IMG/VR virus record: IMGVR_UViG_3300017963_000262
Location: 1-64,000 of that record
From: a virus
Strand: one strand, 5' to 3'
DNA: 64,000 bases
Made by a program: the position numbers and the translations under genes. The notes below the pieces were generated by a model. That model did not search any database. It worked only from the letters and a program-made list of their open reading frames with translations, and was not told the origin of the DNA. Within the stretch, counting starts at the first letter, position 1. Every line of letters begins with the position of its first letter. Shown here piece after piece: positions 4,015-60,020 of the stretch.

Positions 4015-4803
4015 ATGATTAGTGTTAACGGTGAAAAAATCAACGTAACTAAGTTTAGTGACCAAACAAGTCAAGTGTGGAATGTTTCTGGTATTTCAGG
4101 ACTTACAGCAGTTGTAGTTTGGAATTTTGAGCTTGAAAGTGAATTTCTTCATTTAGCTCAATTGAAGACTTTATTAGATAAAAAAGGGATTCGAGCAACT
4201 TTACACATGCCATATTTACCTTATGCGAGACAGGATAAGCCTGTTAATAACCAAAATACATTTGCTTTAATCACTTTTGCTAAATTAATTAATGATTTAA
4301 AGTTTGAGGCAGTTTTTGCTGTAGATCCTCATAGTGAAGTTCCAAAAGAACTTATCAAGAATTTTACTCCTATTATACCTTTCAATTATATTCGTATAGC
4401 AGAAATCCATACACAATCTGATGTTATGTGTTTTCCTGATAAAGGCGCTATGACTAAATATGGTAAATATTTTAAACCTGAACGCTATGTTTATGGCGAA
4501 AAAGTAAGAAATCAACAAACTGGCAAGTTGGAAGATATGAAACTTGTTGGTGATGTTAAAGATAAAAATGTTTTAATTGTTGATGATATTTGTGATGGTG
4601 GAGGAACTTTTTGCTGGATGGCACAGTTGTTGTACGATGCTGGAGCAAAATCTGTTAATTTATATACAACTCACGGTATTTTTAGTAAGGGACTTAGACC
4701 GTTGAGAGAAGCGAAAATTGAGCGTATATTTACAAAAGATGGTGAAATTAGTGAATATCATAAACATATTGTTTATAAACCTATGGAGAATACAGAACTA
4801 TGA
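4015..4803 (+). CDS. ribose-phosphate pyrophosphokinase (Prs) family protein, short form; candidate ADPR-pyrophosphokinase (Adps-like)
   Basis: 262 aa; Prs signature PYLPYARQDKP (~PYFGYARQDRK) and PRPP/PRTase loop VLIVDDICDGGGT; shorter than canonical ~315-aa Prs. Confidence 0.6.
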   Translation: MISVNGEKINVTKFSDQTSQVWNVSGISGLTAVVVWNFELESEFLHLAQLKTLLDKKGIRATLHMPYLPYARQDKPVNNQNTFALITFAKLINDLKFEAVFAVDPHSEVPKELIKNFTPIIPFNYIRIAEIHTQSDVMCFPDKGAMTKYGKYFKPERYVYGEKVRNQQTGKLEDMKLVGDVKDKNVLIVDDICDGGGTFCWMAQLLYDAGAKSVNLYTTHGIFSKGLRPLREAKIERIFTKDGEISEYHKHIVYKPMENTEL

Positions 4804-5063
4804 AATACAGAAAAAAACCTGTAGTTATTGATGCTTATAAATATGAAGGAGATGGATTGGATGCTCTTTCTTGGTCAGCAGAAGTAAGCCCTGATCCAAA
4901 AACACCACTTATAGTTAAACCCGGAATTGGGTTATTTATAGAAACATTAGAAGGTGAAATGCATGTTTCTGAAGGTGATTTTATAATTAAAGGCATTCAA
5001 GGTGAGTTTTATCCCTGTAAACCAGATATTTTTGAACAAACTTATGAAAAGGTGGAAGAATGA
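4800..5063 (+). CDS. hypothetical protein
   Basis: 87 aa ORF, start overlaps upstream stop (ATGA); good coding periodicity. Confidence 0.4.
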   Translation: MKYRKKPVVIDAYKYEGDGLDALSWSAEVSPDPKTPLIVKPGIGLFIETLEGEMHVSEGDFIIKGIQGEFYPCKPDIFEQTYEKVEE

Positions 5064-5350
5064 AGAGATCAAGAACTGAAGTTTTGTTAAATCAAGTTTT
5101 AAATGAAATACACAATGTTCAATATGAATTAGAAAAAAAAGCCAAAATCGGTAAAGATAAAATTCAATATACAATTGATGGAAGAATGCGAGATGGGGCA
5201 TTTAGATCTGATGACCCAAATGGTTATGTTTCATTAGAATTAACTATGGATGAAGAAAAATATATTCTTGATTTACTTGAAAAACATTACGAAGAATTAG
5301 GTTATAAAATAAAAAATTATAAAACATATTTAGAAATTGAGGTAAAATAA
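5060..5350 (+). CDS. hypothetical protein
   Basis: 96 aa, ATGA overlap with upstream gene, ends 1 nt before the Nampt-like start. Confidence 0.4.
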   Translation: MKRSRTEVLLNQVLNEIHNVQYELEKKAKIGKDKIQYTIDGRMRDGAFRSDDPNGYVSLELTMDEEKYILDLLEKHYEELGYKIKNYKTYLEIEVK

Positions 5351-6933
5351 TGAAAGGTTTAATTCCAACGCTTTTATGCGATTTTTACAAAGTCAGTCAC
5401 CGAGAGCAATATCCTGCGGGGACAGAAGTTGTTTATTCGACTTGGGTTCCTCGTTCAGGAAAACATGCCCCGAATATTAAACACGTTGTTGCTTTTGGGT
5501 TTCAGGGATTTATTAAAGAGTTTATGATTGACTACTTTAATGAAAACTTCTTTGCTCGCAACAAAGATGAAGTATTAGCCGAATATAGTCGATATATGAA
5601 GTTTTGTCTTCAAGTTCAAAATCCTGATACAAGTCACATTGAAGCACTACACGATCTAGGTTATTTGCCATTAAAAATTAAAGCTCTTGATGAAGGTACT
5701 CTTGTTCCGTTTCGTGTTCCAATGCTTACCATTGAAAATACAGATTCTCGTTTCTTTTGGTTAACAAATTATTTTGAAACTCTAATGTCTGCAAATCTTT
5801 GGAAGCCAGCAACATCAGCTTCTATTGCTAAAGAATATCGCGATTTATTAGATAGCTATGCCAAAAAAACTACAGGGTCTACCGACTTTGTTATGTTCCA
5901 AGGTCACGACTTTTCAATGCGAGGCATGTCTGGTCTTGAAGATTCTGCTAGAACTGGTGCAGGACATTTATTATCTTTTGTTGGAACAGATACTATTCCA
6001 GCTATTCAATATCTTGAGCAATATTATAATGCGAATATTGAAAAAGAACTTGTTGGTTGTTCTGTAAATGCAACAGAACATTCGGTGATGTGTGCTGGAG
6101 GAAAAGATGACGAATTTGAAACTTATCGTCGTTTAATTGAAGATACATATCCTACAGGAATTGTTTCTATCGTTTCTGATACTTGGGATTTGTGGCATGT
6201 TCTCACTGATACTATTCCTAAACTTAAAGAAAAGATTCTTGCTAGAGACGGTGGACCAGAGTCGTTAGACAAAGTAGTTATTCGACCTGACTCAGGAGAT
6301 CCTGTTAAGATTCTTTGTGGAGATAACGATGCTCCAATGAATAGTCCAGCAAATAAAGGGGTTATTCAACTTTTGTGGGAAACATTTGGTGGAACAGTAA
6401 ACAAAGAAGGATATAAAGAGCTAAATCCTGCGATTGGAGCTATTTATGGTGATGCTATTACTCTTGATCGTTGCGGACATATTTGTGACAGATTGGAAAC
6501 TCAGGGCTTTGCATCGACTAATGTTGTATTCGGTATTGGCTCTTACACTTATCAAATGAACACTAGAGATACTCTTGGATTTGCAATGAAAGCAACTTCT
6601 GTAGTTATCAATGGTGTCGAGATGCCAATTTTTAAAAATCCAGTAACTGATGATGGTGTAAAAAAATCTAATTTGGGCAGAGTTGCTGTTATTGAAAATA
6701 GTGCAGGAAATTTAGTTTGTGTTGACGATAATAGTCATCAATCTGTAGTAAAAAGTGCACAAAACTGTAATTTATTAACCGATGTATTTGTTGACGGTAA
6801 ATTGGTAAAAGAAACAACTTTACAAGAAGTTAAATCTAAGATGGTATCGGAAGAAGATAGAGTTTCAGGATTTAGCATGAGTTTAAAAGCGGCAAAAATG
6901 GAGTTAGAACATGGTATTGGAACTGAAGGGTGA
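5350..6933 (+). CDS. nicotinamide phosphoribosyltransferase (Nampt/NadV) family; candidate nicotinamide ADPR transferase (Namat-like)
   Basis: 527 aa; N-terminus LLCDFYKVSHREQYP matches the Nampt TDSYK.SH..QYP signature; size typical for Nampt-family enzymes. Confidence 0.65.
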   Translation: MKGLIPTLLCDFYKVSHREQYPAGTEVVYSTWVPRSGKHAPNIKHVVAFGFQGFIKEFMIDYFNENFFARNKDEVLAEYSRYMKFCLQVQNPDTSHIEALHDLGYLPLKIKALDEGTLVPFRVPMLTIENTDSRFFWLTNYFETLMSANLWKPATSASIAKEYRDLLDSYAKKTTGSTDFVMFQGHDFSMRGMSGLEDSARTGAGHLLSFVGTDTIPAIQYLEQYYNANIEKELVGCSVNATEHSVMCAGGKDDEFETYRRLIEDTYPTGIVSIVSDTWDLWHVLTDTIPKLKEKILARDGGPESLDKVVIRPDSGDPVKILCGDNDAPMNSPANKGVIQLLWETFGGTVNKEGYKELNPAIGAIYGDAITLDRCGHICDRLETQGFASTNVVFGIGSYTYQMNTRDTLGFAMKATSVVINGVEMPIFKNPVTDDGVKKSNLGRVAVIENSAGNLVCVDDNSHQSVVKSAQNCNLLTDVFVDGKLVKETTLQEVKSKMVSEEDRVSGFSMSLKAAKMELEHGIGTEG

Positions 6934-7381
6934 TATTAGAGAAACTCCAATTCTTTCAATTGCTCACGGAGTTAATTGTCAAGGTGCTATGGGTTCTGGA
7001 GTTGCCAGAGCCTTATTTCAAAAATGGCCTGAAGTAAGAACTGAGTATCTAAAGTTTTACGCTGAAGCAAAGGAAGAAGGCGCAAAACCTGAAGATTTTT
7101 TAGGATGCACAAATAAAGTTGTAACCGATAGAAAATACATATATAATATGTTCACACAACTAGAGTTTGGTCCAGCAGATAAGCAATATGTTGATTATTC
7201 TGCCATTTTAAAATGTTTTGATGATTTACGCTATGAGATGCCTAGAGCAATTGCTGTGCCAAAGATTGGTGCAGGATTAGCTGGTGGGGATTGGAAAGTA
7301 ATTAGAGATATATTAGTCAAAACTACTCAAAAATTAGGCATTGATCTGGTAATTTACAGCTTGACAGATGATAAAAAATAA
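6911..7381 (+). CDS. macro-domain protein (ADP-ribose binding/processing)
   Basis: 156 aa; IAHGVNCQGAMGSGVARAL resembles the macro-domain N..N....GGGV..A motif; overlaps the Nampt-like gene by 23 nt. Confidence 0.5.
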   Translation: MVLELKGDIRETPILSIAHGVNCQGAMGSGVARALFQKWPEVRTEYLKFYAEAKEEGAKPEDFLGCTNKVVTDRKYIYNMFTQLEFGPADKQYVDYSAILKCFDDLRYEMPRAIAVPKIGAGLAGGDWKVIRDILVKTTQKLGIDLVIYSLTDDKK

Positions 7382-7409
7382 TATACATTAATATTTAAAA
7401 GGAGATTAT

Positions 7410-8276
7410 ATGAAAGTTCTATTACTTATTTCGTTTCTATTTATGACAGCTTGTTCAATTGTTGGTCCGGGAGAAAGAGGTGTACGTCTTAAAATGGGTG
7501 AAGCTCAGGATTACGTTTTAGAGCCGGGAGCACATTTTTGGATTCCAGTATTTCGTGGAGTCGCTAAAGTTGATGTTCAAATTCAAAAAAATGAAGTAGT
7601 TACACCATCAGCATCAAAAGACATGCAAGAAATTGAAACAAATCTAGCAGTCAATTGGCATATTGAAGCCGATCAAGTTGTTAAACTTTATAAAAGTGTT
7701 GGGCATGAATATTATATCCTTAATCGACTAATCGTTCCTGCGGTAAATGAAGTTTTAAAAGCCACTAGTGCAAAATTAACTGCAGAAGAGATTTTGACTA
7801 AACGTGTCGAAATGAAAGATGATATTGACAGTAGCCTTCGCAATAGACTTCTAAAATATGGAATTATTATTGACGAAATTAATATTGTTGATTTAACTTT
7901 TAGTAAAGAATTTACTCATGCTATTGAGCAAAAACAGATTGCTGAACAGGAGGCAAAGCAAGCTTACTATTTAGCACAAAAAGTTGCTAAAGATGCTGAG
8001 GGTAAGGCTGTTGCGCAAGTTACTATGGCAAAAGCCGATGCAGAACAAAGAGTTATTGATGCTGGGGCCAAGGCTAAGTCAGAGGTTCTTGCAGCAAAAG
8101 CTGATGCTGAAGCAAAATTATTAAGAGCTAACGCTGAAGCAAAAGCTAACTTAACTGTAGCAAAATCTTTAACGCCAGCACTAATTAAGTATGAAAAAAT
8201 TAAAAACTGGAATGGTCAATTGCCTAAAGTAACAGGCGGTGCAGGAACTCTAATTTCAATTGATGGTGATAAATAA
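7410..8276 (+). CDS. SPFH/band-7 (prohibitin/HflC-like) lipoprotein
   Basis: 288 aa; lipobox LFMTAC; SPFH-like core followed by A/E/K-rich coiled coil; SD GGAGA 8 nt upstream. Confidence 0.5.
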   Translation: MKVLLLISFLFMTACSIVGPGERGVRLKMGEAQDYVLEPGAHFWIPVFRGVAKVDVQIQKNEVVTPSASKDMQEIETNLAVNWHIEADQVVKLYKSVGHEYYILNRLIVPAVNEVLKATSAKLTAEEILTKRVEMKDDIDSSLRNRLLKYGIIIDEINIVDLTFSKEFTHAIEQKQIAEQEAKQAYYLAQKVAKDAEGKAVAQVTMAKADAEQRVIDAGAKAKSEVLAAKADAEAKLLRANAEAKANLTVAKSLTPALIKYEKIKNWNGQLPKVTGGAGTLISIDGDK

Positions 8277-8931: not shown

Positions 8932-9225
8932 ATGTCTAAAACTAAAAACAAGAGTCGCTCAGAGCTGGAACATGTTCGGGGACAATTGAAAGCTGTTCGT
9001 CGAGAAAATCGACAATTGAGAAAACGTTTAAAAGAGCTAGAAAGACAAGCTCATTTTTATGAGGAAACAATAGATGATGTTGCCGAAGACATAGATCTAG
9101 ATACTTGCCCAAAGTGCCAAAAAGGTCAAACTGTCGTTATAGATTTAAAACATCTAATACTCGTAAGTTGCAATCAGTGTGAATACAAGGAAAGGTTAAA
9201 GCCTGATGGGAAAAAAATTAAATAG
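8932..9225 (+). CDS. hypothetical zinc-ribbon protein
   Basis: 97 aa; CPKCQ...CNQC Cys4 pattern; basic coiled-coil N-terminus. Confidence 0.35.
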   Translation: MSKTKNKSRSELEHVRGQLKAVRRENRQLRKRLKELERQAHFYEETIDDVAEDIDLDTCPKCQKGQTVVIDLKHLILVSCNQCEYKERLKPDGKKIK

Positions 9226-9598
9226 AAAGAGTTGGGTTGTTCAAAGATTGAGACGACTCTCCATGAAGTGGCCACCCAGAAATGCAGTAAAAAAAGCAAA
9301 TAGACGAGAATATTATAAAACTCGCAAAGATGGGTCTAAGTATGCTAAACCCAATTTTGAATATCAATGTAATATGTGTAAAAACTGGTTTGCAGACAAA
9401 GATACTTGCATGGACCATATTATTCCTGTAGTTGACCCTAAAGATTCTGAACAGTATTGTGAACAGGATTTTATTGGTATGTTTGTCATGGGCCTACTAT
9501 CTTACGAAGATAACTGGCAAATTTTGTGTCATTCGTGTCACGATATTAAAACTGAAAAAGAGAATAAAATTAGACAAAAAACTAAGAAAAAAAGTTGA
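9206..9598 (+). CDS. HNH endonuclease
   Basis: 130 aa; CNMC...DHIIP...N...CHSCH HNH/Zn pattern. Confidence 0.55.
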   Translation: MGKKLNRKSWVVQRLRRLSMKWPPRNAVKKANRREYYKTRKDGSKYAKPNFEYQCNMCKNWFADKDTCMDHIIPVVDPKDSEQYCEQDFIGMFVMGLLSYEDNWQILCHSCHDIKTEKENKIRQKTKKKS

Positions 9599-32455: not shown

Positions 32456-32897
32456 AACGCTGATTATGTTAGTTCTAATTACTCTAATGTGGGCTGATAT
32501 TGGACGATCTGAAGTTCAATTTAAGACAGATAGAATAGAACAAGAATTTGAACAACTGTACTCTAAAAATCTTGAGTTATATCAGATAGTTATCTTTGCA
32601 AATTATAAACTCACCGAAATATCTAAAAAAAATTTAGTAATTACAGAGATTTATAGAACACAAGCTGAACAAGACAAATATTACAAGGGAAAGAAAAAGT
32701 TTAAATCTCCACACCAACGATGGTTAGCTGTAGACATTAGAACTAGGCATTTATCAAAAAAAGAAGTTAAACTGCTGGTTAAAGCCATAAATAAGCGATA
32801 TAATTCGATAAATAGATATAATCCTTCAGCATTTTATCATAGCATTGGTCGAGGACATCATATTCACATCCAATTCAAGGATAGAAATGAAAACTAA
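32439..32897 (+). CDS. peptidase M15 (VanY/L-Ala-D-Glu peptidase-like) endolysin with N-terminal signal or SAR segment
   Basis: 152 aa; HQRWLAVDI (H..D) and HHIHIQ (HxH) zinc-binding motifs; hydrophobic N-terminus LIMLVLITLMWA. Confidence 0.5.
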   Translation: MMRNLKTLIMLVLITLMWADIGRSEVQFKTDRIEQEFEQLYSKNLELYQIVIFANYKLTEISKKNLVITEIYRTQAEQDKYYKGKKKFKSPHQRWLAVDIRTRHLSKKEVKLLVKAINKRYNSINRYNPSAFYHSIGRGHHIHIQFKDRNEN

Positions 32898-33408
32898 GAT
32901 TATTAATTATTTTGGAGGTCCCGGAGTTGGCAAAAGTACCGATAGTGCGGCTCTATATGTTGAAATGAAACGTGCAGGATATGATGTTGAGTTGGTTAGA
33001 GAAGTTGCTAAAAAGTATGCACATAAGGGTCAGAATATAGGGGCTTTCGATCAAATAGCTATTATTGGTCAACAAATCGAAGAAGAAAGTAGTCTTATTG
33101 GAAATGTTGAATATGTAATAACTGATGGACCATCATTTCTTTGCGCAATATATCTTTATACAAATCACGATAAATATTTTATGATGGATTCAGTTAAAAA
33201 ATATTATGAATATTGTCAACAAAAGGGTGTTATATTTAAGAACTTTGTTATACCTAGAACTAAAGAGTACAATCCTAAAGGACGATTTGAAGATGAATTT
33301 ACTGCAAATTTTATAGACAGTCTTGTTAGGGTTCAGTTGACAAAATACGATATTCCTTATACAGTAAAGAATCCGACGATTAAGGACGTTATTTATGAAA
33401 AGAAGTGA
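32845..33408 (+). CDS. P-loop NTPase/kinase-like protein
   Basis: 187 aa; Walker A GGPGVGKST; possible DxP Walker B-like VITDGP. Confidence 0.45.
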   Translation: MVEDIIFTSNSRIEMKTKIINYFGGPGVGKSTDSAALYVEMKRAGYDVELVREVAKKYAHKGQNIGAFDQIAIIGQQIEEESSLIGNVEYVITDGPSFLCAIYLYTNHDKYFMMDSVKKYYEYCQQKGVIFKNFVIPRTKEYNPKGRFEDEFTANFIDSLVRVQLTKYDIPYTVKNPTIKDVIYEKK

Positions 33409-50845: not shown

Positions 50846-51293
50846 TGATTTTAAAGCTACCATGATATTTTTATTAGGAATGATTATTAGCGGATGTGGA
50901 TCACTTCACAAAGCTGATGGTATATACAACCTAGATCCTGACTTCGGAGCATACACTAACGCATATCAGGAGTATAAAGAACGTTATTTGGGAACAAGAG
51001 ACGTTGAATATGCCATTGACGTTGAGTATGGACATTTAGAGGAACCAACAATAGGCCGATGTCGTCAACCTGACGTTCCTTTCTTAAAAAGAACAATAAC
51101 TGTTGATTATACATATTGGAATGATGCTGATGATGAATTAAAACTACGATTAATGTTTCACGAACTAGGTCATTGTGATTTAAACTGCGACCATCAAGAT
51201 GAAGAACAAGGAATAATGAACGAATCTATGGGACATTACTCACCAAGAATGAGTGATAAAGAAATTGAAGCCATGTTTTTGGAGTGCAAATAA
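50832..51293 (+). CDS. zinc-metallopeptidase-like lipoprotein
   Basis: 153 aa; lipobox LGMIISGC; HELGHCDLNCDH (HExxH-type). Confidence 0.45.
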   Translation: MIMNNDFKATMIFLLGMIISGCGSLHKADGIYNLDPDFGAYTNAYQEYKERYLGTRDVEYAIDVEYGHLEEPTIGRCRQPDVPFLKRTITVDYTYWNDADDELKLRLMFHELGHCDLNCDHQDEEQGIMNESMGHYSPRMSDKEIEAMFLECK

Positions 51294-52225
51294 TGTTTAA
51301 AAGATATAACTCAATTGAAAACCATTATCGTCAAAAGTATATTTTAAATTCACTATCACAACAACCTGAATTAGAAAACTGCAAATATTCTATTAGAGAA
51401 AAAGTAGATGGGGCAAACGTTCAATTCTTTTTTCAAAAAGGGAAAAAGATGGAGGTCGGAAAGCGTTCTTCCTTTCTAAAAGAAGAAGATTCTTTTTATG
51501 ATATTTGGTCGGTTGTTGCTAGAAATGATTCAATCCTACAACGTTTTCAAGATTTTGTTGATGCAGGGGATTTCAAGCTTAGGGTTTATGGTGAACTTTT
51601 TGGACCAGCTATACAAAATCGAGTAGACTATGGTCCTATAAAAAATATTTTATTTTTTGATATTGAACTTGATGGTCAGATGGTTTCTCAACAAAAATTT
51701 GAAGAGATTATGAAATTACTTAATCTTGAGGACGAAATGGTTCCCTTAGTTGGATACGCAGACAGTTTAACTGAGGCTTTAAATTTTAGTTGCGATTTTG
51801 ATAGTAAGGTAATTGCTAAAGAAAACAACCCTGCCGAAGGAATTGTCATCAAGCCTTATGAAAAAGAATATACAATGGGTAATGGATCTCGTTTTCTTTT
51901 AAAGAAAAAATCTGAAAAATTTAAAGAGAAAGAAAGTAAAGGGAAAGCACCAAAAGTAGAAGAAAATTTACCCCAAGAAGTCGTTTCATTAATGCTTGAA
52001 TTTCGGGGCTATGTTAATAAGAATAGAGTTCTTAGTGTTTTCTCTAAACATGGCGAAATTGAAAGTCCAAAAGAGATTGGCAAATATATACAATTAGTAA
52101 TGGATGACGCTAAAGAAGATTTTTTAAAAGACAATGAACTTCCTGAAGGATTAGAAAAAAAGGTTGAAAAGAAAATATTTAATGTTGGTGGACATATTGT
52201 AAATCTGTTGAAGGAGCATTTATGA
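51284..52225 (+). CDS. ATP-dependent polynucleotide ligase (RNA ligase-like)
   Basis: 313 aa; motif I KVDGANV (KxDG), motif IV EGIVIKP, motif V K-rich LLKKKSEKFK. Confidence 0.55.
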   Translation: MQIMFKRYNSIENHYRQKYILNSLSQQPELENCKYSIREKVDGANVQFFFQKGKKMEVGKRSSFLKEEDSFYDIWSVVARNDSILQRFQDFVDAGDFKLRVYGELFGPAIQNRVDYGPIKNILFFDIELDGQMVSQQKFEEIMKLLNLEDEMVPLVGYADSLTEALNFSCDFDSKVIAKENNPAEGIVIKPYEKEYTMGNGSRFLLKKKSEKFKEKESKGKAPKVEENLPQEVVSLMLEFRGYVNKNRVLSVFSKHGEIESPKEIGKYIQLVMDDAKEDFLKDNELPEGLEKKVEKKIFNVGGHIVNLLKEHL

Positions 52226-52635
52226 ACTTAAAAAGTCGATTGGATCATATTGCACATTTACTTGGATCAACTCGTCGTTATGGTAAAACTACATTAGCAG
52301 CTAGAGCTTGTAAAGAACTTGATGGAGTTTATCTTTGCGCTAATTATGCTCAAGCCAAATTAGTTAATCGAGAACATGGAGTCCATACTCAGTCAATTGA
52401 GAAGAATTTAAGTGGTTTTAGAGGCCCATTCTTTATTGACCACTTTGCTGTAGAAAATTTACTATGTCGAGCTGCACAAAAATTAGACAATAGTGACAAA
52501 AAAATTGACGAATTAAATACAACTGTTTCAAATAAAGATTATGAAATAGAATCTTTACAAAACCGCATTCTTGAGTTACTCTATGATAAAGAAAGATTAG
52601 AGCAAGAACTGCGGAGAATAAAAGATGGATTATGA
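52222..52635 (+). CDS. hypothetical protein
   Basis: 137 aa; C-terminal coiled coil. Confidence 0.35.
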   Translation: MNLKSRLDHIAHLLGSTRRYGKTTLAARACKELDGVYLCANYAQAKLVNREHGVHTQSIEKNLSGFRGPFFIDHFAVENLLCRAAQKLDNSDKKIDELNTTVSNKDYEIESLQNRILELLYDKERLEQELRRIKDGL

Positions 52636-53065
52636 AAAAGAATTAATTTTAATGGTAGGACCGATTGGTTCAGGCAAGACTACTTTTGCGAAATCTCTGG
52701 TGAACGATAGTGCTATTCGTATCTCTCAGGATGAAATGGGTAGAAAAGCCTACTTAAATCATTTTAAAGAAGCTCTCAAAGATGGCATCCCTAGAATAAT
52801 CATCGACAGAATGAATTTTGATCGTAAACAGCGAGAGCGTTTTATTAAACCAGCTAGAGAAGCTGGATATTGTGTAACAATTATGGAAATGGACTACAAT
52901 CCTCTAACTTGCTTAAAAAGAGTTATTGATCGTAAAAATCATCCCACTATTCAACAAGGGTCTGCACAGTTGGCTAAAGATATTATTCTTCGATTTATGA
53001 AAGACTACGAACATCCTGAAAACGATGAGTACGATAACTATAATCTTATTCCTTTGGAGGAATAA
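52625..53065 (+). CDS. P-loop polynucleotide-kinase-like protein
   Basis: 146 aa; Walker A GPIGSGKTT; IIIDRMNFDRKQRERF resembles the Pnk D..R / R-rich lid. Confidence 0.5.
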   Translation: MDYEKELILMVGPIGSGKTTFAKSLVNDSAIRISQDEMGRKAYLNHFKEALKDGIPRIIIDRMNFDRKQRERFIKPAREAGYCVTIMEMDYNPLTCLKRVIDRKNHPTIQQGSAQLAKDIILRFMKDYEHPENDEYDNYNLIPLEE

Positions 53066-53301
53066 TGGAAGAATACTTAAAGATTAGTGATGATATTAAA
53101 TATCAAAATGGAAAATTTTATTATAACAAAAAAGAATATCATTGGGGATCGGGGTATAAAGACCAAGATCGATGGTTATTAATTACCCCATTTACTAAAA
53201 TTGAATATGGATACTATGAAGAAGAGTGGACAGAAACTTTATGTATCGATGAAAACACTGGTGAAAAATTTTGGATTGAAAGGTTGGGAAACATTAAGTA
53301 A
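53065..53301 (+). CDS. hypothetical protein
   Basis: 78 aa. Confidence 0.35.
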   Translation: MEEYLKISDDIKYQNGKFYYNKKEYHWGSGYKDQDRWLLITPFTKIEYGYYEEEWTETLCIDENTGEKFWIERLGNIK

Positions 53302-53346
53302 GTATAAAACAGGTGTCGTTAGGCGTTTAGTTGATAAGGGTATTAA

Positions 53347-53922
53347 ATGGATTTAGTTGGTGGACAATTTAACTATTTAACCGTAAAAAGTTATAGTCAT
53401 TCTCGACGAGATAGATACTGGAATTGTTTGTGTGATTGTGGTAACCAGTGTTTAGCAACAACTAATCAATTAACGTCTGGTAATAAAAAAAGCTGCGGCT
53501 GTTTAAGAAAAAAGACGACAGCCCAATTATTTAAAAAAAGAAAACCATCAGATCCTGCAACAAAAAATGATAGTAGTATAAATAAACTTTATTATCGTTA
53601 TAAAAAAGACGCTAAAAAACGAAATTATCAGTTTAATTTGTCCAGAGATGAATTTAAACAATTAATTGTTGAAAATTGCTTTTATTGTGGAACCAAACCC
53701 AACTCAATATTAAATGAAAAAGATTTAAGGGGTCAAATTAAGTATAATGGAATAGATCGAATTAATAATGATAATGACTATAATTTAGACAATGTAGTTC
53801 CTTGTTGTAAAAGATGTAATGCAGCTAAATCAAATATGACTTTAAAAGAATTTTTAGATATTATTGACAATATTCAAAAAAATATGTTAAAATTAAGAAA
53901 CATACAAAGGATAGTAAATTAA
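53347..53922 (+). CDS. HNH homing-endonuclease-like protein
   Basis: 191 aa; Cys clusters (CLCDCGNQC, CGC) and C-terminal CCKRCNAAK HNH/zinc motif. Confidence 0.5.
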   Translation: MDLVGGQFNYLTVKSYSHSRRDRYWNCLCDCGNQCLATTNQLTSGNKKSCGCLRKKTTAQLFKKRKPSDPATKNDSSINKLYYRYKKDAKKRNYQFNLSRDEFKQLIVENCFYCGTKPNSILNEKDLRGQIKYNGIDRINNDNDYNLDNVVPCCKRCNAAKSNMTLKEFLDIIDNIQKNMLKLRNIQRIVN

Positions 53923-55649
53923 TGGCTAGACTTTTTACCAGTGACACCCACTTTCGTCATCGTAATGTTATTAAATACTGTAATCGTCCTTGGGATAATA
54001 CTGCAGAGATGGATGAGGCTATAATTGAGCAATGGAACTCTCAGGTTGGACCAGATGATGAAGTATATCATCTTGGTGACGTTGGTATTGGTAAAGGAAT
54101 GGCCTTAAAAGAAGATCTTATCAAGCGTTTAAATGGTAAAAAGCATTTAGTTCTAGGAAATCACGATGCAATGTTTAATACGTTACATAAAAATCCTGAT
54201 TGCGTAGAAACTCATGCTAAAGTTGCGAATAAATACTTGAAGGCAGGATGGTGTAGTGTCGATATTATCAAATATTTGATGTTAAAAGACGGTACTCACG
54301 TTGTAATGACGCATCTACCTCCTGATAATGGGATTGATAATCGTTATTCGCAATATAAAGTGAAAAATAATCCTAATTTTAACTATCTTCATGGTCATTT
54401 ACACGCTCATTATCTTAAAAAGAACAACATGCATGATATGGCATTTGATGGCAATCTTCGTTTATACACTGAGGATGAAGTTATTGCTATAATTAAAGAT
54501 GAAAGAGACTTTATTCCTAGCAGAATTACTGAATATTACAATAAAACTGAAGCAATTATGTTAAAACCGTTTGAAGAAGAGCGAAAAAAGGGCAACATTC
54601 GTCGTCAAGATAATTTTAACGGTGATTTGTGCTTATATAACTATACCGATCAGTGTACTTTTGATAGAGCATGGAATGATGTCACTAGAAATTCTAGAGG
54701 AATCGTTTTTGAAGTTGCTACAGGTAAGATTATTGCTTTACCTTTTCCTAAATTCTTTAATCTAGGAGAAATGCCGGAAACCAGATTAGAAAATCTCCCA
54801 GACGAGGAGTACGTTGTCACTGAAAAAATGGATGGATCTTTGGGCATTCTCTATTATTATAAAGATAAGTGGCGCATGAATACCAGAGGCTCGTTTGATA
54901 GTGAACAAGCAATTAAAGGACTTGAAATTTTCAACAAGCAATATGATTCTCATTTCTTTAACCAAGATTATACATATTTAGTAGAGATAATATATCCTGA
55001 AAACAAAATTGTTGTAGATTATGGAAAAGAAGAAAAGCTGGTACTTTTAGCGATTGTGGATACTAATAATCAAAAAGAGGTGGTTGTTCCTGATATGGCT
55101 TGGCTTCCTGAAGTTACCGCTGGCGGTATGCCTTATCGAAATGAATATAAATATACTATTGACGAAATGATTGAGTTACAGCAAACTTTACCAAAAGATG
55201 ATGAAGGCTTTGTTGTTCGTTTCAATAATGGATTACGAGTAAAAATAAAAGGAAAAGAGTATCTTCGAGTTCATAAACTAATTTCTCACATGACACCATT
55301 AGCATTTTGGGAATCTATGGAAGGTGGTAAAGTTAAAATAGATTACTTACAAGAACTTCCTGAAGAGTACAGAAAAGATGCTGAAGAACTTAGTGAAATT
55401 TTACAAGTGTCTTATAGAACTGTTGAAGTCTATGCTCTAGATTCAGTTGATCGAGTTATTAGGCAAGTTGGATTTGGCGATATTAATACTCAAGAATACA
55501 GAAAGAAGATTGGGCTTTATTTAAAAAATAATAAGGTTCCTCATCAAGGATTTATTTTTCCATATCTTTATGGTAAAAAAGAATCTTGTGAAAGATATAT
55601 TATGAACCAAATTAGACCAAAAGGAAATGTTATAGATGCCATACGTTGA
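53922..55649 (+). CDS. metallophosphoesterase-polynucleotide ligase fusion (RNA end-healing and sealing enzyme)
   Basis: 575 aa; N-terminal calcineurin-like motifs SDTHF, GDVG, LGNHD; C-terminal ligase motifs I KMDGSL, IV EGFVVRF, V KIKGKEY. Confidence 0.6.
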   Translation: MARLFTSDTHFRHRNVIKYCNRPWDNTAEMDEAIIEQWNSQVGPDDEVYHLGDVGIGKGMALKEDLIKRLNGKKHLVLGNHDAMFNTLHKNPDCVETHAKVANKYLKAGWCSVDIIKYLMLKDGTHVVMTHLPPDNGIDNRYSQYKVKNNPNFNYLHGHLHAHYLKKNNMHDMAFDGNLRLYTEDEVIAIIKDERDFIPSRITEYYNKTEAIMLKPFEEERKKGNIRRQDNFNGDLCLYNYTDQCTFDRAWNDVTRNSRGIVFEVATGKIIALPFPKFFNLGEMPETRLENLPDEEYVVTEKMDGSLGILYYYKDKWRMNTRGSFDSEQAIKGLEIFNKQYDSHFFNQDYTYLVEIIYPENKIVVDYGKEEKLVLLAIVDTNNQKEVVVPDMAWLPEVTAGGMPYRNEYKYTIDEMIELQQTLPKDDEGFVVRFNNGLRVKIKGKEYLRVHKLISHMTPLAFWESMEGGKVKIDYLQELPEEYRKDAEELSEILQVSYRTVEVYALDSVDRVIRQVGFGDINTQEYRKKIGLYLKNNKVPHQGFIFPYLYGKKESCERYIMNQIRPKGNVIDAIR

Positions 55650-55911
55650 CGATAATAAAAGAAAAGATATTTTTCTTAGTAAAGAAGATGGTAATGCGTT
55701 TGATGCAATTGTTCTTGAATCAATTGATTGTGCTGGAGATTTACAATATGCAATGGCGATTATGTTTAAAGAATATATTGAAAGAAACGGCTTGAATTAT
55801 CAACATTGCAATGATATAATGGGAGCATTAGCTGGGGCACAAATAGAATTTTATAGACGTACAGTAGCTCCTTATGAGGATCAGAAGATTGAAGAAAACG
55901 GTGATATTTGA
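55636..55911 (+). CDS. hypothetical protein
   Basis: 91 aa. Confidence 0.35.
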   Translation: MPYVDDNKRKDIFLSKEDGNAFDAIVLESIDCAGDLQYAMAIMFKEYIERNGLNYQHCNDIMGALAGAQIEFYRRTVAPYEDQKIEENGDI

Positions 55912-56036
55912 ATGTGACGAATTACCTGATGAGATAGAGGTTGTTTTTCATAAAAGCAGATTAAAATCTCTCCAAGGTGGAGTTTATACTCAGTATGTAA
56001 AACATGTTGTTTTTACCAAAGAAAGGGAATATGTAA

Positions 56037-56183
56037 ATGAGCACAAGCAGAGCAAAACAAATTGCACAAAAAAGAAAGACAAAAACTAAAAAATCAGGAA
56101 ATGGTGCCAAGACTAATTACGCAAAACGTAAACGAATGAAAAAAGGTTCAACGAAGCACTTTACTGGTGGGAAAAAACGATAA
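56037..56183 (+). CDS. small highly basic protein (candidate, below ORF-track cutoff)
   Basis: 48 aa MSTSRAKQIAQKRKTKTKK...; alternative to overlapping ORF 55874-56089. Confidence 0.25.
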   Translation: MSTSRAKQIAQKRKTKTKKSGNGAKTNYAKRKRMKKGSTKHFTGGKKR

Positions 56184-56216
56184 TGGAAGACTTTCCTTGT
56201 CCTGAGTGGGAAGATT

Positions 56217-56471
56217 ATGAAGAAATTAATAACTAAAGAAAGACTGTGTACTTTAGCAACAATAGCTTACCACTGTTTGTTTTTAAGTGGTGCCAGTTTT
56301 TATGTTGCTGAATTTCAAAAAACCAGAGATACTATCGTTAAACAAGTTGATCGCGTTGAGAAAAAAGCTGATGAATTAAAGAAAACTGGAGAAAGTATAA
56401 ATAGCTCAATTAAATCTGTTGAATCAAAGTTAGATAAAGTTAAACGAACCTGTGAAAAGTTGAGATTTTAA
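56217..56471 (+). CDS. hypothetical membrane/coiled-coil protein
   Basis: 84 aa. Confidence 0.35.
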   Translation: MKKLITKERLCTLATIAYHCLFLSGASFYVAEFQKTRDTIVKQVDRVEKKADELKKTGESINSSIKSVESKLDKVKRTCEKLRF

Positions 56472-56686
56472 TGTTAGATAAAAAGCGCATTATGGAAGTT
56501 ATGGTGGCTTATGGAAAGCAAGTCGGCTACCCTGATAAGATTGGACCAAAACAATTTATACAGGGACATCTAAATAACTGTTTCAAAGTCTTGATGATGA
56601 AGAAACTTGTAAAACCAGAGCACTATAACTCATATCGCGCAGCGGCAATTGAAGAATATAAAAAATGGTGGATGAATAACCGATGA
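56471..56686 (+). CDS. hypothetical protein
   Basis: 71 aa. Confidence 0.35.
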   Translation: MLDKKRIMEVMVAYGKQVGYPDKIGPKQFIQGHLNNCFKVLMMKKLVKPEHYNSYRAAAIEEYKKWWMNNR

Positions 56687-56979
56687 AGCAGGGCGACAAA
56701 GTACATCTCAAAGGTCGAGAAGAGGTTACTGGAGTTATTGAAAAAACTAAATTTGACCACATGTGGGGAATTAATTACACACAACACTATGTTAAATACG
56801 ATAAAGATGACTTAATTCCTCCAGCCGATTGGCACGAAGAAGATGATTTGGTATTAATTGAACCTTTACCTAAAGGTAATAATACTTATAAACATCCTGT
56901 TTGTGAATGTGGAGTAAGTAAAGTAATGCATAATGGTAGGCATAGTGATTATTGTCCGTTATATAAGGAGTATAAATAA
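56683..56979 (+). CDS. hypothetical Cys/His protein
   Basis: 98 aa; CECG...HNGRHSDYC. Confidence 0.35.
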   Translation: MKQGDKVHLKGREEVTGVIEKTKFDHMWGINYTQHYVKYDKDDLIPPADWHEEDDLVLIEPLPKGNNTYKHPVCECGVSKVMHNGRHSDYCPLYKEYK

Positions 56980-57230
56980 TGGGTGAATTAAAATTATATG
57001 AAGAGCCAGCCGGAACCAACGAAGTTATAATTGATGAGCCTGAGTTTGGTGATGGTGACGATGGTGGAGAAGGCGAAGGATTGGATGCAATTAACATTCA
57101 ATTTGTAACTAATGGTGTCATTGTAACATTCTCTCTACTTGAAGGTGAAGAGCACAAAGAAGTTTATTATACACTAGATGAAGCTTTACAAAGAATCAGT
57201 CAAAGCGTAGGAGCATATTGTGAAGAGTAG
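56979..57230 (+). CDS. small acidic protein
   Basis: 83 aa; GDGDDGGEGEG. Confidence 0.35.
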   Translation: MGELKLYEEPAGTNEVIIDEPEFGDGDDGGEGEGLDAINIQFVTNGVIVTFSLLEGEEHKEVYYTLDEALQRISQSVGAYCEE

Positions 57231-57504
57231 AAAATTGTATCCTAAAAATATAACAAAGTCTTTTCGTAAGTTTTCTGGAGAATTATCTATTCAAGTTGAT
57301 GGTAAAAGATGGATTGATGTTAAACCTTCAGAAAAAGCTGGTCCACAAGTTATTGATGAATTTATTAAAGCGAGAAATACTGATAGACTGGAGTACGTTG
57401 AGATTAATGAAAATCAAGAAATTGTTGATTTAAAAATTGATAAATACAAAAATGCAGATAAATCTGTGGTTGATAAAGTTAGAAAGATATATAGACATGG
57501 CTAA
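57220..57504 (+). CDS. hypothetical protein
   Basis: 94 aa. Confidence 0.35.
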   Translation: MKSRKLYPKNITKSFRKFSGELSIQVDGKRWIDVKPSEKAGPQVIDEFIKARNTDRLEYVEINENQEIVDLKIDKYKNADKSVVDKVRKIYRHG

Positions 57505-58258
57505 GATTGCATTAACATCAGATCTACATTACGGCTGTACCGGAAATTCTGCAAATAAAATACAGAAAATGTTTAATCGTTTGAATAATCAGGATTTTGA
57601 TGTTTTAATCTTAGCTGGGGACCTAGCCTCACATACACAATATCACTACAAAAGATGTTTAGAAACAGCGCGTCAGTGCATACCAGACAAGCCTATTCTG
57701 ACAGTTCGAGGCAACCATGATTTGTGGGATGGTTTACACAAAAAAGATAAAAAGTCACAGAGACGAATGTTATATCAAATATATGAAGAACATGAGCAAT
57801 TATACCGAGACAATAACATACAACATCTAGATACGCCATTTAAGCTCGATGATGTTACTATTTTTGGATTTGATGGATGGTATCATAAACCGGACCCCAA
57901 AACTAACGACAGTCATTGGATGCCTCTTATGCACGAAAGTTGTCGCACGTTAACATATTTATCAAATAATAGTTTTAAAGATTTTGATAGAGTTTTAGAT
58001 CAATACGATAAACAAAAAAATGATATTAATGTTTTAGTTAGTCACTTCCCATCAATTGCAATAAAAAATGATAGACATGAATTTAATGCGTCACCGCGTT
58101 TTCTTCCAGAAATAAAAGAACGGTTTGATGTTGTTTGTTATGGACATTCGCATAAATTTATGAATATAACCGAAGATGGTACACGTTTTTGTAACTCTGG
58201 TTCTGACTATGGTAAACCTTCAGCAATGATTATTAATACTAAATTGTCCTCTGTCTGA
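57437..58258 (+). CDS. calcineurin-like metallophosphoesterase
   Basis: 273 aa; SDLHYG (DxH), ILAGDLA (GDxxD), RGNHD motifs. Confidence 0.5.
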   Translation: MINTKMQINLWLIKLERYIDMAKIALTSDLHYGCTGNSANKIQKMFNRLNNQDFDVLILAGDLASHTQYHYKRCLETARQCIPDKPILTVRGNHDLWDGLHKKDKKSQRRMLYQIYEEHEQLYRDNNIQHLDTPFKLDDVTIFGFDGWYHKPDPKTNDSHWMPLMHESCRTLTYLSNNSFKDFDRVLDQYDKQKNDINVLVSHFPSIAIKNDRHEFNASPRFLPEIKERFDVVCYGHSHKFMNITEDGTRFCNSGSDYGKPSAMIINTKLSSV

Positions 58259-59942: not shown

Positions 59943-60020
59943 TGGCGGTGCTAGAGGGATTTGAACCCTCGATCTCTGCCGTGACAGGGCAGCGTCCACT
60001 CCAGACTGGACCGTAGCACC
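59943..60020 (-). tRNA. tRNA-Asp (anticodon GUC)
   Basis: minus reads GGTGCTA..GTCC-AGTCTGGAGT-GGAC..CTGCC-CTGTCAC-GGCAG..GAGGG-TTCAAAT-CCCTC-TAGCACC-G-CCA; cloverleaf folds by hand; anticodon loop CU-GUC-AC; encoded CCA. Confidence 0.7.

Follow-up and report, generated by a model that had tools for sequence, protein, structure and literature searches.

A predicted RNA end-healing and sealing cassette with a metallophosphoesterase-ligase fusion in an uncultured phage

RNA breaks of the kind that a phage healing-and-sealing cassette would mend are made by anticodon nucleases and other metal-independent RNases. Bacteriophage T4 encodes the end-healing enzyme Pnkp (PseT) and the ligase Rnl1 (gp63), together with a second ligase, Rnl2 (gp24.1). 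In the bacterial Pnkp-Hen1 system, Clostridium thermocellum Pnkp (CthPnkp) carries a kinase, a metallophosphoesterase (MPE) phosphatase and a ligase, and the MPE domains of CthPnkp and lambda phosphatase can heal RNA 2′,3′-cyclic phosphate ends (PMC2190708, PMC3675462). A further MPE family, PHROG 547, which has the fold of Aquifex aq_1665 (PDB 1xm7), includes mycobacteriophage D29 Gp66, named a 2′,3′ cyclic nucleotide phosphodiesterase in the title of Dutta et al. 2014 (cited in PMC12287305), as well as Bxb1 gp47, which lacks phosphoesterase activity and serves as a recombination directionality factor, and mycobacteriophage A10ZJ24 Gp48, which damages host DNA (PMC12287305). Finally, the Mucorales RNA 5′-OH kinases RazKIN and MciKIN are stand-alone end-healing enzymes that work with a separate ligase (PMC11571804).

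Here we describe a locus in a 64,000-nucleotide stretch of viral DNA (IMG/VR record IMGVR_UViG_3300017963_000262; hereafter the window), in which positions 51293-55649 code for an Rnl2-family RNA ligase, a 146-aa polynucleotide 5′-OH kinase and a 575-aa MPE-ligase fusion (Table 1), predicted to form a full set for mending cut RNA in an uncultured phage. A sequence-only reading had proposed an RNA end-healing and sealing cassette made of these proteins, and had added to it a stand-alone MPE, a phage tRNA-Asp and a counter-defence purpose. All four proteins that it named lie where it had placed them and carry the motifs that it quoted, and the family-search E-values of the cassette proteins, the stand-alone MPE and the tRNA-Asp are far beyond chance. 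Its core, the two RNA ligases, the Pnk-like kinase and the fusion, is upheld by the assigned families, the predicted structure, the conserved catalytic residues and the gene context in relatives, but the three additions are not. The cassette (GC 32.5%) lies in an accessory gene block, outside the structural module at 13-47 kb.

Table 1. Features of the cassette and its surroundings (window coordinates).
Feature	Position	Strand	Remarks
Rnl2-family RNA ligase	51293..52225	+	310 aa from ATG at 51293; nucleotidyltransferase domain and Rnl2-specific C-terminal domain
137-aa ORF	52222..52635	+	GKTT motif in N-terminal region, C-terminal coiled coil; candidate of no assigned function
Stand-alone polynucleotide 5′-OH kinase	52625..53065	+	146 aa, without phosphatase domain; 5′ end healing
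78-aa ORF	53065..53301	+	Variable spacer between kinase and fusion genes
HNH endonuclease	53347..53922	+	phrog_374 9e-19, phrog_1035 1.5e-16
MPE domain, residues 1-205 of fusion	53922..54536	+	Predicted RNA 2′,3′-cyclic phosphodiesterase / 3′-phosphatase (3′ end healing)
Rnl1-type RNA ligase domain, residues ~206-575 of fusion	54537..55649	+	Nucleotidyltransferase and helical C-terminal domain (sealing)
DUF6899 protein	55636..55911	+	91 aa; Pfam DUF6899 1.6e-21; start overlaps fusion-gene end
Stand-alone MPE	57437-58258 (likely 57497-58258)		Metallophos 7.5e-18
tRNA-Asp(GTC)	59943-60020	-	ARAGORN and Rfam

In the case of the first gene, the mechanical ORF spans 51284-52225 (313 aa, GTG start at 51284), and the true start is likely the ATG at 51293, from which the protein begins MFKRYNS as in T4 Rnl2 and at which gene callers obtain 310 aa. 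Both ligase motifs noted earlier (KVDG and EGIVIKP) were recovered, with KVDG at residue 40 and EGIVIK at residue 185 of the 313-aa ORF, and the family proved to be Rnl2, on matches to Pfam RNA_ligase (8e-19) and T4_Rnl2_C (9e-13), phrog_548 (6e-57) and PDB T4 Rnl2 2hvq (1e-25, the alignment beginning at residue 2). The catalytic residues of T4 Rnl2 align with motif I KVDG and with GELFGP, FFDI, AEGIVIKP and LLKKKSEKF of the phage protein. Relatives L005, L006, L008 and L095-L097 likewise have such a gene close to their fusion gene.

The 146-aa kinase has a P-loop, GPIGSGKT, at residues 12-19, together with Asp36 and the lid arginines Arg99 and Arg103, as expected of the Pnk-like enzyme with an arginine lid that had been proposed. 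It matches Pfam AAA_33 (1e-17) and tRNA_lig_kinase (4e-5, which passes the Pfam cut-off) and the polynucleotide kinases of phrog_505 (1e-10). Its best solved relatives are PDB 9drz (3.5e-17) and the stand-alone fungal RNA 5′-OH kinase RazKIN (9d8a, 1e-15), whose catalytic residues align with the P-loop, Asp36 and Arg99/Arg103; mammalian PNKP kinase gives 3e-5. When checked for a dNMP-kinase identity, the protein grouped with polynucleotide kinases instead. The same check for DNA-ligase identity returned Rnl1 and Rnl2 types for the two ligase domains.

The fusion ORF (53922-55649) was confirmed as a calcineurin-type phosphoesterase joined to a second ligase domain, with DTH at residue 8, GDVG at 52, GNHD at 79, KMDG at 302, EGFV at 428 and KIK at 441. 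It matches Pfam Metallophos (residues 4-162) and RNA_lig_T4_1 (258-447, 2e-20), as well as the phosphoesterases of phrog_547 (2e-37) and T4 gp63/Rnl1 of phrog_562 (7e-62). Every metal-binding and nucleotidyl-transfer residue is unchanged across 34/34 fusion homologues at 47-77% identity, and an AlphaFold model (mean pLDDT 88.6) resolves two well-folded modules, with tRNA repair and splicing ligases as the closest structural relatives of the ligase domain. Over its whole length, the MPE domain can be aligned with D29 Gp66 (29% identity, E 3e-17), and it is a member of the D29 Gp66 / aq_1665 clade, not of the Pnkp / lambda-phosphatase clade. This MPE family is broad and functionally mixed (14,757 representative clusters at E<=1e-3); the fusion proper is limited to ~40 protein clusters from uncultured phages, and is absent from 185,579 species-representative genomes, its matches being in phage-like contigs only.

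The three functions had been described as consecutive; all three are present, but the 137-aa ORF, the 78-aa ORF and an HNH endonuclease gene, the last overlooked earlier, lie in between. The 137-aa ORF, which gives nothing beyond coiled-coil noise in Pfam and NCBIfam, is 50% identical to an ORF at the same position in L005 and absent from L006-L012, and is probably not a core component. The 78-aa ORF has no family match in Pfam and PHROG searches and no homology to its positional counterpart in L005, a 79-aa ORF. The HNH gene has a GC content of 26.6%, as against 32.5% for the cassette, and is missing both in L005, whose 79-aa ORF directly adjoins the fusion gene, and in L097, whose kinase gene does so; it is a probable homing or mobile insertion that parted kinase from fusion. 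Downstream, the DUF6899 gene directly follows the fusion in L005, lies 2.4 kb off in L006 and was not found in L008, and any tie to repair is tentative.

Turning to gene context, the nearest stand-alone relatives of the ligase domain (~50% identity) sit directly downstream of T4-type kinase-HAD Pnkp genes (L011 and L012). Since the window kinase is 39-40% identical to the kinase domains of those Pnkp proteins, and tblastn found no HAD, HAD_SAK or RlaP homologue in the window (64 kb of a ~70-85 kb genome), the fused MPE would most likely have taken the place of the HAD 3′-phosphatase. A kinase gene lies near the fusion and Rnl2 in L005, L006 and L095-L097, not in L008, and gene order varies; MPE, kinase and Rnl1-like ligase likewise occur together, in shuffled order, in many phage contigs. 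In two cultured phages, Vibrio phage PS17B-2 and Aeromonas phage phiA009, the MPE, the Rnl1-like ligase and a small P-loop kinase are encoded by separate genes in an operon, and L007 encodes a kinase-Rnl1 fusion and, after it, an MPE from the same family as the fused one. Among 80 IMG/VR loci with an Rnl1-like ligase, which were ranked on the whole fusion and are thus enriched for MPE neighbours, and which include several near-duplicates (~17 distinct arrangements), a Gp66-type MPE was counted within 4 kb on the same strand in 23, a HAD phosphatase in 12 and both in 1; against an expected overlap of ~3.5, this near-exclusivity is not statistically significant. Bacterial loci had this type of MPE in 0/79 cases and a HAD phosphatase in 48/79. 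Of the stand-alone MPEs examined, the two closest (L013, L014) lie on short contigs that show no ligase.

The stand-alone MPE in the window is real but generic, and nothing links it to RNA repair: it comes 1.5-1.8 kb after the fusion gene, with eight small ORFs in between, and is conserved in the closest relative only. Its start is most plausibly the ATG at 57497, which falls right at the stop codon of the preceding ORF and shortly ahead of the first MPE motif; on identical contigs, gene callers start six codons after the TTG (268 aa). The tRNA-Asp is also genuine; it has a canonical anticodon loop and lies on the opposite strand in a separate gene block, and its partnership with the cassette is speculative. 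The window also holds NAMPT-like, PRPP-synthetase-like and Macro-domain genes, candidates for counter-defence aimed at small molecules.

In the mechanism that we propose, the N-terminal MPE of the 575-aa protein would open the 2′,3′-cyclic phosphate and take off the phosphate to leave a 3′-OH, and the separate kinase would phosphorylate the 5′-OH. The fused Rnl1-type domain, adenylylated at Lys302, would then pass AMP to the 5′-phosphate and seal the break, which is most likely to lie in the anticodon loop of a tRNA, as with T4 Rnl1, and the Rnl2-type ligase would seal nicks in duplex RNA. In evolutionary terms, this lineage would have exchanged a T4-type kinase-HAD Pnkp for two proteins, one with the kinase alone and one in which a D29 Gp66-type MPE is joined to the ligase. 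By analogy, the likeliest target would be tRNAs cut by bacterial defence nucleases; the dedicated counter-measure against tRNA-targeting defences in the earlier reading is drawn from T4 biology and is not visible in the sequence itself.

RNA healing and sealing by the fusion and a separate kinase, with the MPE in place of a HAD phosphatase, is the best explanation of these data, and we regard it as probable. Were the MPE domain instead a nuclease or trimming enzyme, degrading host DNA or removing damaged 3′ nucleotides, with the fusion serving another nucleic-acid transaction, it would resemble the Cluster A mycobacteriophage MPE that is grouped with D29 Gp66 and disrupts host genomic DNA (PMC12287305). 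This is very unlikely, given that its partner is an RNA ligase closest in structure to tRNA repair and splicing ligases, that a HAD 3′-phosphatase fills the niche of the MPE in sister loci, and that the recurrent pairing with a polynucleotide kinase is sensible only for preparing ends for ligation; moreover Gp66, the closest tested homologue by alignment, is reported as a 2′,3′-cyclic phosphodiesterase, to go by the title cited above. The least probable of the alternatives has the MPE domain acting on small molecules (2′,3′-cyclic nucleotides or cyclic-oligonucleotide immune signals), in which case its fusion to a ligase would be incidental or regulatory. The small-molecule counter-defence candidates in the same window favour it, but a stable fusion in ~40 clusters with both active sites invariant points to consecutive steps on one substrate, as does the repeated operon partnership of MPE with kinase and ligase, and CthPnkp and lambda phosphatase heal RNA ends and also act on small cyclic phosphates in vitro (PMC2190708).

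It is also conceivable, although rather unlikely, that these are real RNA and polynucleotide end-processing enzymes with a job other than countering host tRNA nucleases, such as mending phage or host RNAs damaged by the phage's own nucleases, phage transcript processing, RNA circularisation or, for the Rnl1 homologue, virion assembly in the manner of T4 gp63 (tail-fibre attachment). The name of PHROG 562 reflects the dual role of T4 gp63, the phage is uncultured and has no known host nuclease, and to our knowledge Rnl2 has no established physiological role even in T4. Against this, the cassette lies in the accessory block rather than the structural module, and the sole established role of a phage kinase/phosphatase with Rnl1 is, as generally understood, reversal of anticodon-nuclease damage (T4 PrrC; PMC7824862).

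How, then, does the healing-and-sealing cassette compare with described systems? The Gp66 family shares all metal-binding motifs with the fused MPE, but Gp66 and most members are stand-alone proteins of ~170-240 aa, many from phages without RNA ligases, whereas the fused MPE is covalently linked to an Rnl1 ligase. RazKIN and MciKIN agree in P-loop, catalytic Asp and the two lid arginines with the 146-aa kinase, which stops before the G-loop that gives RazKIN its GTP specificity (Ser146 in RazKIN), and their setting is tRNA splicing rather than phage repair. With bacterial Pnkp, the cassette has in common an MPE-fold 2′,3′ healing activity, as predicted, beside an ATP-dependent ligase, and a gene order, kinase then MPE-ligase, that repeats the order of the Pnkp domains and does so most clearly in L097; this match is convergence. 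The earlier likening to Pnkp thus stands for function and domain order, but the cassette is two polypeptides rather than one, its ligase is of the Rnl1 type, helical C-domain included, its MPE is of another clade, the TIGR04075 bacter_Pnkp model scores 16.5 bits against a cut-off of 750, and no Hen1 methyltransferase was found among the scanned ORFs; it would be a functional analogue of bacterial Pnkp, outside that family. T4 offers the same three chemistries and the same two ligase families, down to the Rnl2-specific C-terminal domain, and the Pnkp kinase domains encoded ahead of sister Rnl1 genes are homologues of the cassette kinase. Scores against the NCBIfam equivalogs are 70.8 (cut-off 242) for T4 RnlA and 115 (cut-off 197) for T4 Rnl2, and the kinase, unlike that of T4, stands alone. 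Phage RNA healing and sealing is an already known kind of system, and what sets this one apart from T4 is the 3′-end enzyme: a dinuclear metallophosphoesterase joined to the sealing ligase, in place of a DxDxT HAD acylphosphatase joined to the kinase.

The sequence-only reading had placed two RNA ligases in this region, and both were recovered as members of known RNA ligase families with conserved catalytic residues. In the case of the 575-aa fusion protein, the ligase domain is of the T4 Rnl1 type (PF09511, 2e-20) and matches PHROG 562, the T4 gp63 family, at 7e-62 over residues 212-566. In an alignment of 34 full-length fusion homologues (47-77% identity), R259, K277, F278, K302, D304, G305, E355, E428, G429, K441 and K443 are invariant, and a HMMER alignment to T4 Rnl1 (2c5u) pairs these 11 residues with R54, K75, F77, K99, D101, G102, E159, E227, G228, K240 and K242, the essential T4 Rnl1 residues as numbered in mutagenesis work by the Shuman laboratory. 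Covalent nucleotidyltransferase motifs I, III, IV and V are present with their essential residues, and the profile match is accompanied by an Rnl1-type fold that includes the all-helical C-terminal domain; an AlphaFold model of the fusion, built on the same alignment, has a mean pLDDT of 88.6. The closest structural relatives of the domain are the two best-studied enzymes that seal tRNA breaks. The second ligase, encoded by the 313-aa ORF, matches the Pfam RNA_ligase family, the Rnl2-specific C-terminal domain and PHROG 548, with PF09414 at 68.8 bits and PF18043 at 48.7 bits, both above the cut-off of 27. It aligns from residue 2 with the T4 Rnl2 structure sequence 2hvq (E 1e-25), and the K of KVDG, GELFGP, FFDI, AEGIVIKP and LKKKSEKF pair with T4 Rnl2 K35, E99, F119/D120, E204 and K225/K227. 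The protein thus combines the nucleotidyltransferase and C-terminal domains of the Rnl2 family with conserved catalytic residues, and it scores below the cut-off of the equivalog model TIGR02307 (115 vs 197). The gene almost certainly begins at the ATG at 51293 (MFKRYNS...), and on identical metagenome contigs gene callers predict a 310-aa protein. Both proteins are predicted to be RNA ligases with intact active sites.

The calcineurin-like phosphoesterase domain of the fusion spans residues 4-162 according to Pfam (PF00149, 25.6 bits against a cut-off of 21.5) and 1-206 according to PHROG 547 (2e-37). It carries all the two-metal motifs of the dinuclear metallophosphoesterase (MPE) superfamily (DxH, GD, GNH(D/E), H, GH and GxH) as D8-x-H10, G52-D53, G79-N80-H81-D82, H131, H159 and H161, and all of these residues, the full metal-binding set (D8, H10, D53, N80, H81, H131, H159, H161) among them, are invariant in the 34 homologues. 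When searched alone against 1.84 billion representative proteins, the domain matched 14,757 clusters at E<=1e-3, and among the matches listed nearly all are stand-alone proteins of about 170-240 aa. The family occurs in 1,415 cultured-phage records, mostly annotated as "phosphoesterase". The two nearest stand-alone MPEs (L013 and L014) lie on short, ligase-free contigs and are uninformative.

Profile searches identified the separate 146-aa ORF as a P-loop kinase (AAA_33, 1e-17; tRNA_lig_kinase above the Pfam cut-off; PHROG 505, polynucleotide kinase). Among proteins of known structure it is closest to the small stand-alone P-loop proteins 9drz (3.5e-17) and RazKIN (9d8a, 1e-15), with the mammalian PNKP kinase domain next. 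RazKIN is an RNA 5'-OH kinase of tRNA splicing, validated biochemically and genetically (PMC11571804); the phage P-loop, Asp36 and Arg99/Arg103 align with its P-loop, catalytic aspartate and lid arginines, and the phage protein ends before the G-loop that confers GTP preference on RazKIN. The dNMP and thymidylate kinase PHROGs score much worse, which argues against a dNMP kinase. With polynucleotide kinases as its best relatives, the protein is predicted to be a polynucleotide kinase, in agreement with its earlier description as Pnk-like.

Positions of the cassette genes and of further features in the window
Feature	Coordinates	Strand	Remark
PRPP-synthetase-like protein	4015-4803	+	Pribosyltran 4e-10
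NAMPT/NAPRTase-like protein	5350-6933	+	1e-42
Macro-domain protein	6911-7381	+	side by side with the PRPP-synthetase-like and NAMPT-like genes
Second HNH endonuclease ORF	9206-9598	+	Pfam HNH 4e-6; nucleotide-metabolism block
Structural module	13003-47211	-	highly divergent
AAA_28 kinase-like ORF	32845-33408	+	elsewhere in window
Rnl2 gene (313-aa ORF)	51284-52225
137-aa ORF	52222-52635	+	between Rnl2 and kinase genes
Kinase (146-aa ORF)	52625-53065
HNH endonuclease	53347-53922	+	between kinase gene and fusion gene
Best sigma-70-like match	53864-53893		11/12, extended -10 TG
MPE-Rnl1 fusion (575 aa)	53922-55649
DUF6899	55636-55911		overlaps fusion gene end
Stand-alone MPE	57497-58258		most plausible coordinates
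tRNA-Asp (GTC)	59943-60020	-	opposite strand, other gene block; single tRNA

Every element named by the sequence-only reading is present in the ORF list and at the motif positions, although the three functions are not consecutive as it had described: a 137-aa ORF, a 78-aa ORF and a 191-aa HNH endonuclease (PHROG 374, 9e-19), all of which it had passed over, intervene. The HNH gene appears to be an insertion. Its GC content is 26.6% vs 32.5% for the cassette, the kinase-to-fusion slot of the relative L005 holds an unrelated 79-aa ORF only, and in the IMG/VR contig L097 the kinase and fusion genes are directly adjacent; kinase followed by MPE-ligase is therefore the underlying arrangement. The genome carries a second HNH ORF, so homing-type endonucleases are present more than once. 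A promoter and terminator scan of 13.5 kb returned chance-level counts (62 vs 59.6 expected, and 7 vs 5.9), from which operon boundaries are not definable. The best sigma-70-like match lies within the last 60 bases of the HNH gene, 29 nt upstream of the fusion ATG, and may, with overall promoter counts at chance level, be a promoter carried in by the insertion. In the 137-aa ORF, a coiled coil follows a conserved 'GKTT' segment (RRYGKTTLAARACKELDGVYLC) near the N-terminus, which resembles a degenerate P-loop. The ORF and its L005 counterpart are 50% identical, and we rejected it as a core component, as it matches no informative family and is conserved in the closest relative only.

Comparative gene context provides the strongest evidence. 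An Rnl2 gene lies near the fusion gene in the relatives L005, L006 and L008 (77%, 52% and 45% identity, respectively) and in three IMG/VR contigs (L095-L097), and a kinase gene is close by in all of these except L008, in varying gene order. The stand-alone proteins most closely related to the ligase domain (about 50% identical) are encoded directly downstream of a gene for a classical T4-type kinase-HAD Pnkp (loci L011 and L012), with whose kinase half the window kinase shares 39-40% identity. Using the HAD domains of L011 and L012 as tblastn queries, we found no HAD domain anywhere in the window. The simplest reading of these sequences would be that this lineage has lost the HAD 3'-phosphatase and that the ligase-fused MPE took over its job.

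These three activities also occur in other permutations. Separate genes in the order MPE, Rnl1-like ligase, small P-loop kinase are found in Vibrio phage PS17B-2 and Aeromonas phage phiA009, and IMG/VR contigs show several more orders. A 48-kb Logan contig (SRR9205268; L007) encodes, in order at 4262-7487, an RlaP nucleotidyltransferase, a 505-aa kinase-Rnl1 fusion (P0049) and a 229-aa MPE, with a HAD_SAK_2 phosphatase and an RF-1 domain protein upstream; this MPE belongs to the same family as the fusion MPE according to an HMM built in this analysis (2e-24) and has no Pfam match on record. Tpt1/KptA, RlaP, HAD_SAK and Hen1 were not found among the window ORFs examined. Loci were scored with HMMs built for this analysis, counting neighbours within 4 kb. 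Among 80 IMG/VR Rnl1-like loci, ranked in a way that favoured matches to the whole fusion, an MPE gene of this family lies on the same strand in 23 (about 17 distinct arrangements), a HAD phosphatase gene is present in 12 and both in 1; among 79 bacterial Rnl1-like loci the figures are 0 for this MPE and 48 for a HAD-type phosphatase homologue. The mutual exclusivity of MPE and HAD around Rnl1 genes is suggestive and not statistically significant, and these counts are supportive rather than decisive. In the bacterial set (L015-L094), Actinomycetota (Streptomyces, Actinoplanes) and filamentous cyanobacteria (Calothrix, Rivularia) commonly carry Rnl1-like ligases.

The fusion protein itself occurs in about 40 protein clusters from uncultured phages, and none of these carries a functional name. 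A scan of 185,579 species-representative bacterial and archaeal genomes revealed no fusion: matches in cellular genomes cover the ligase domain only (residues about 195 onward, <=41% identity), so that within this set no cellular genome has the fusion. In a neighbour-joining tree of the ligase domain (120 best matches), one split separates off 38 of the 39 MPE-Rnl1 fusions, along with two fusion-like proteins that are incomplete at the N-terminus, and P0011 lies outside; crude as it is, this tree suggests essentially one fusion event.

Given the domain identities, the intact catalytic sites and the partnership of the genes, we consider it probable that the MPE, the kinase, the Rnl1 domain and Rnl2 act together to heal and seal broken RNA. 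The MPE would turn a 2',3'-cyclic phosphate into a 3'-OH, the kinase would phosphorylate the 5'-OH, the Rnl1 domain would seal the ends via Lys302-AMP, and Rnl2 would deal with nicks in duplexes. The substrate, chemistry and anti-defence role proposed here are drawn by analogy from T4, from CthPnkp and lambda phosphatase (PMC2190708, PMC3675462) and from mycobacteriophage D29 Gp66. This last protein aligns end to end with the window MPE domain (29% identity, E 3e-17) and is a 2',3' cyclic nucleotide phosphodiesterase according to the title of Dutta et al. 2014, as cited in PMC12287305. Taken together with the fusion and the gene context, the reported activity of Gp66 points to a putative RNA 2',3'-cyclic phosphodiesterase/3'-phosphatase.

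The smaller share of probability that is left is divided between an MPE that is a nuclease, an MPE that acts on small molecules, and a repair activity unrelated to host defence. Two other Cluster A mycobacteriophage MPEs that are grouped with Gp66 are reported to have quite different roles, Bxb1 gp47 as a recombination directionality factor and A10ZJ24 Gp48 as a DNA-damaging counter-defence enzyme (PMC12287305), and family membership alone therefore leaves function unfixed. The heal-and-seal model, which also draws on the ligase fusion and the gene context, remains our preferred reading.

Two further elements had been attached to the cassette; both are real genes, and only proximity links them to it. 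The stand-alone MPE matches generic MPE models only (YfcE-like and similar), lies eight small ORFs downstream of the fusion, and has a counterpart in L005 but in none of the other loci searched for it. The tRNA-Asp gene encodes its own 3' CCA and has C at position 8 in place of U; with the canonical sequence CUGUCAC, its anticodon loop gives no hint of changes that would evade a nuclease. DUF6899 directly follows the fusion in L005, lies 2.4 kb away in L006 and is missing in L008, and given this variable position we leave it as a possible passenger. Far from the cassette, the PRPP-synthetase-like and NAMPT-like genes resemble the phage NAD+ reconstitution pathway (Adps and Namat) countering NAD-depleting defences, and they would be a second counter-defence candidate in this phage. 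The nucleotide-metabolism block also encodes RNR, ThyA, dUTPase, an SPFH/Band 7 protein and a trypsin-like peptidase. The structural module includes a terminase (PHROG 2), a major head protein (PHROG 14242), two large tail-like ORFs (1017 and 1363 aa) and a portal (PHROG 156) whose L005 orthologue matches the Pfam SU10/P22 portal families; the majority of the module's proteins are without a PHROG match. None of 50,697 phage records matched the cassette in a megablast search, and among cultured phages the terminase is closest to that of a Silvanigrella aquatica phage, at 30% identity. By these comparisons the phage is only distantly related to cultured phages.

Phage RNA repair is the classic counter to bacterial tRNA-cutting defences. 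To our knowledge, only the T4 version, which uses a HAD-type Pnkp and Rnl1, has been worked out. The cassette would be the same pathway rebuilt with another 3'-healing enzyme, physically coupled to the ligase, and the unfused version of the MPE/kinase/ligase pattern recurs in many phages. If confirmed, it would offer biochemistry and RNA tool development a compact heal-and-seal system of two proteins, assign a function to part of a phage phosphoesterase family that is very common and poorly understood, and supply a marker gene set predicting which uncultured phages face tRNA-targeting immunity. It is a natural experiment in module shuffling that leaves the concept of RNA repair unchanged and adds no new principle.

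The 2016 survey by Burroughs and Aravind is the main catalogue of RNA repair gene neighbourhoods. No description or test of an MPE-Rnl1 fusion appears in the literature that we searched, a body that omits this survey (NAR 44:8525). The concept itself was established earlier: a jumbo-phage review from the same group (PMC7824862) has suggested calcineurin-like phosphoesterases as phage RNA repair phosphatases, saying only that such domains seem to provide this activity in a few jumbo phages. That MPE-Rnl1 is the first member of a phage-specific class of bifunctional '3'-heal-and-seal' RNA repair enzymes, arising independently of bacterial Pnkp by fusion of a D29 Gp66-type phosphoesterase to Rnl1, is a tentative proposal, to which we give somewhat less than an even chance. 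Were it true, the fusion would be a 'Rosetta stone' for PHROG 547, a very large family of small phage MPEs of disputed role, present in >1,400 cultured phage genomes, and at least the ligase-linked members of this family would serve physiologically to heal RNA 2',3'-cyclic-phosphate ends.

Compared with known systems, the window kinase shares with T4-type Pnkp a P-loop polynucleotide kinase domain with the catalytic Asp and lid Arg, but ends at residue 146, without the C-terminal DxDxT HAD phosphatase that T4-type Pnkp carries in the same polypeptide. Among the ORFs scanned, which take in part of the small ORFs of a window shorter than the whole genome, no methyltransferase was seen that could be a Hen1 partner. 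Bacterial Pnkp unites kinase, MPE phosphatase and ligase in a single polypeptide, whereas the window kinase is a separate gene; the bacter_Pnkp model TIGR04075 is matched by the kinase only, at 16.5 bits vs a cut-off of 750, and the window proteins have neither an MPE of the lambda-phosphatase/Pnkp clade nor a Pnkp-type ligase. The likeness to bacterial Pnkp that had been remarked on thus holds for the underlying order, kinase followed by MPE-ligase, which matches the bacterial domain order, and not for the single polypeptide, the MPE clade or the ligase family; with a different MPE clade and a different ligase family, the likeness is convergent.
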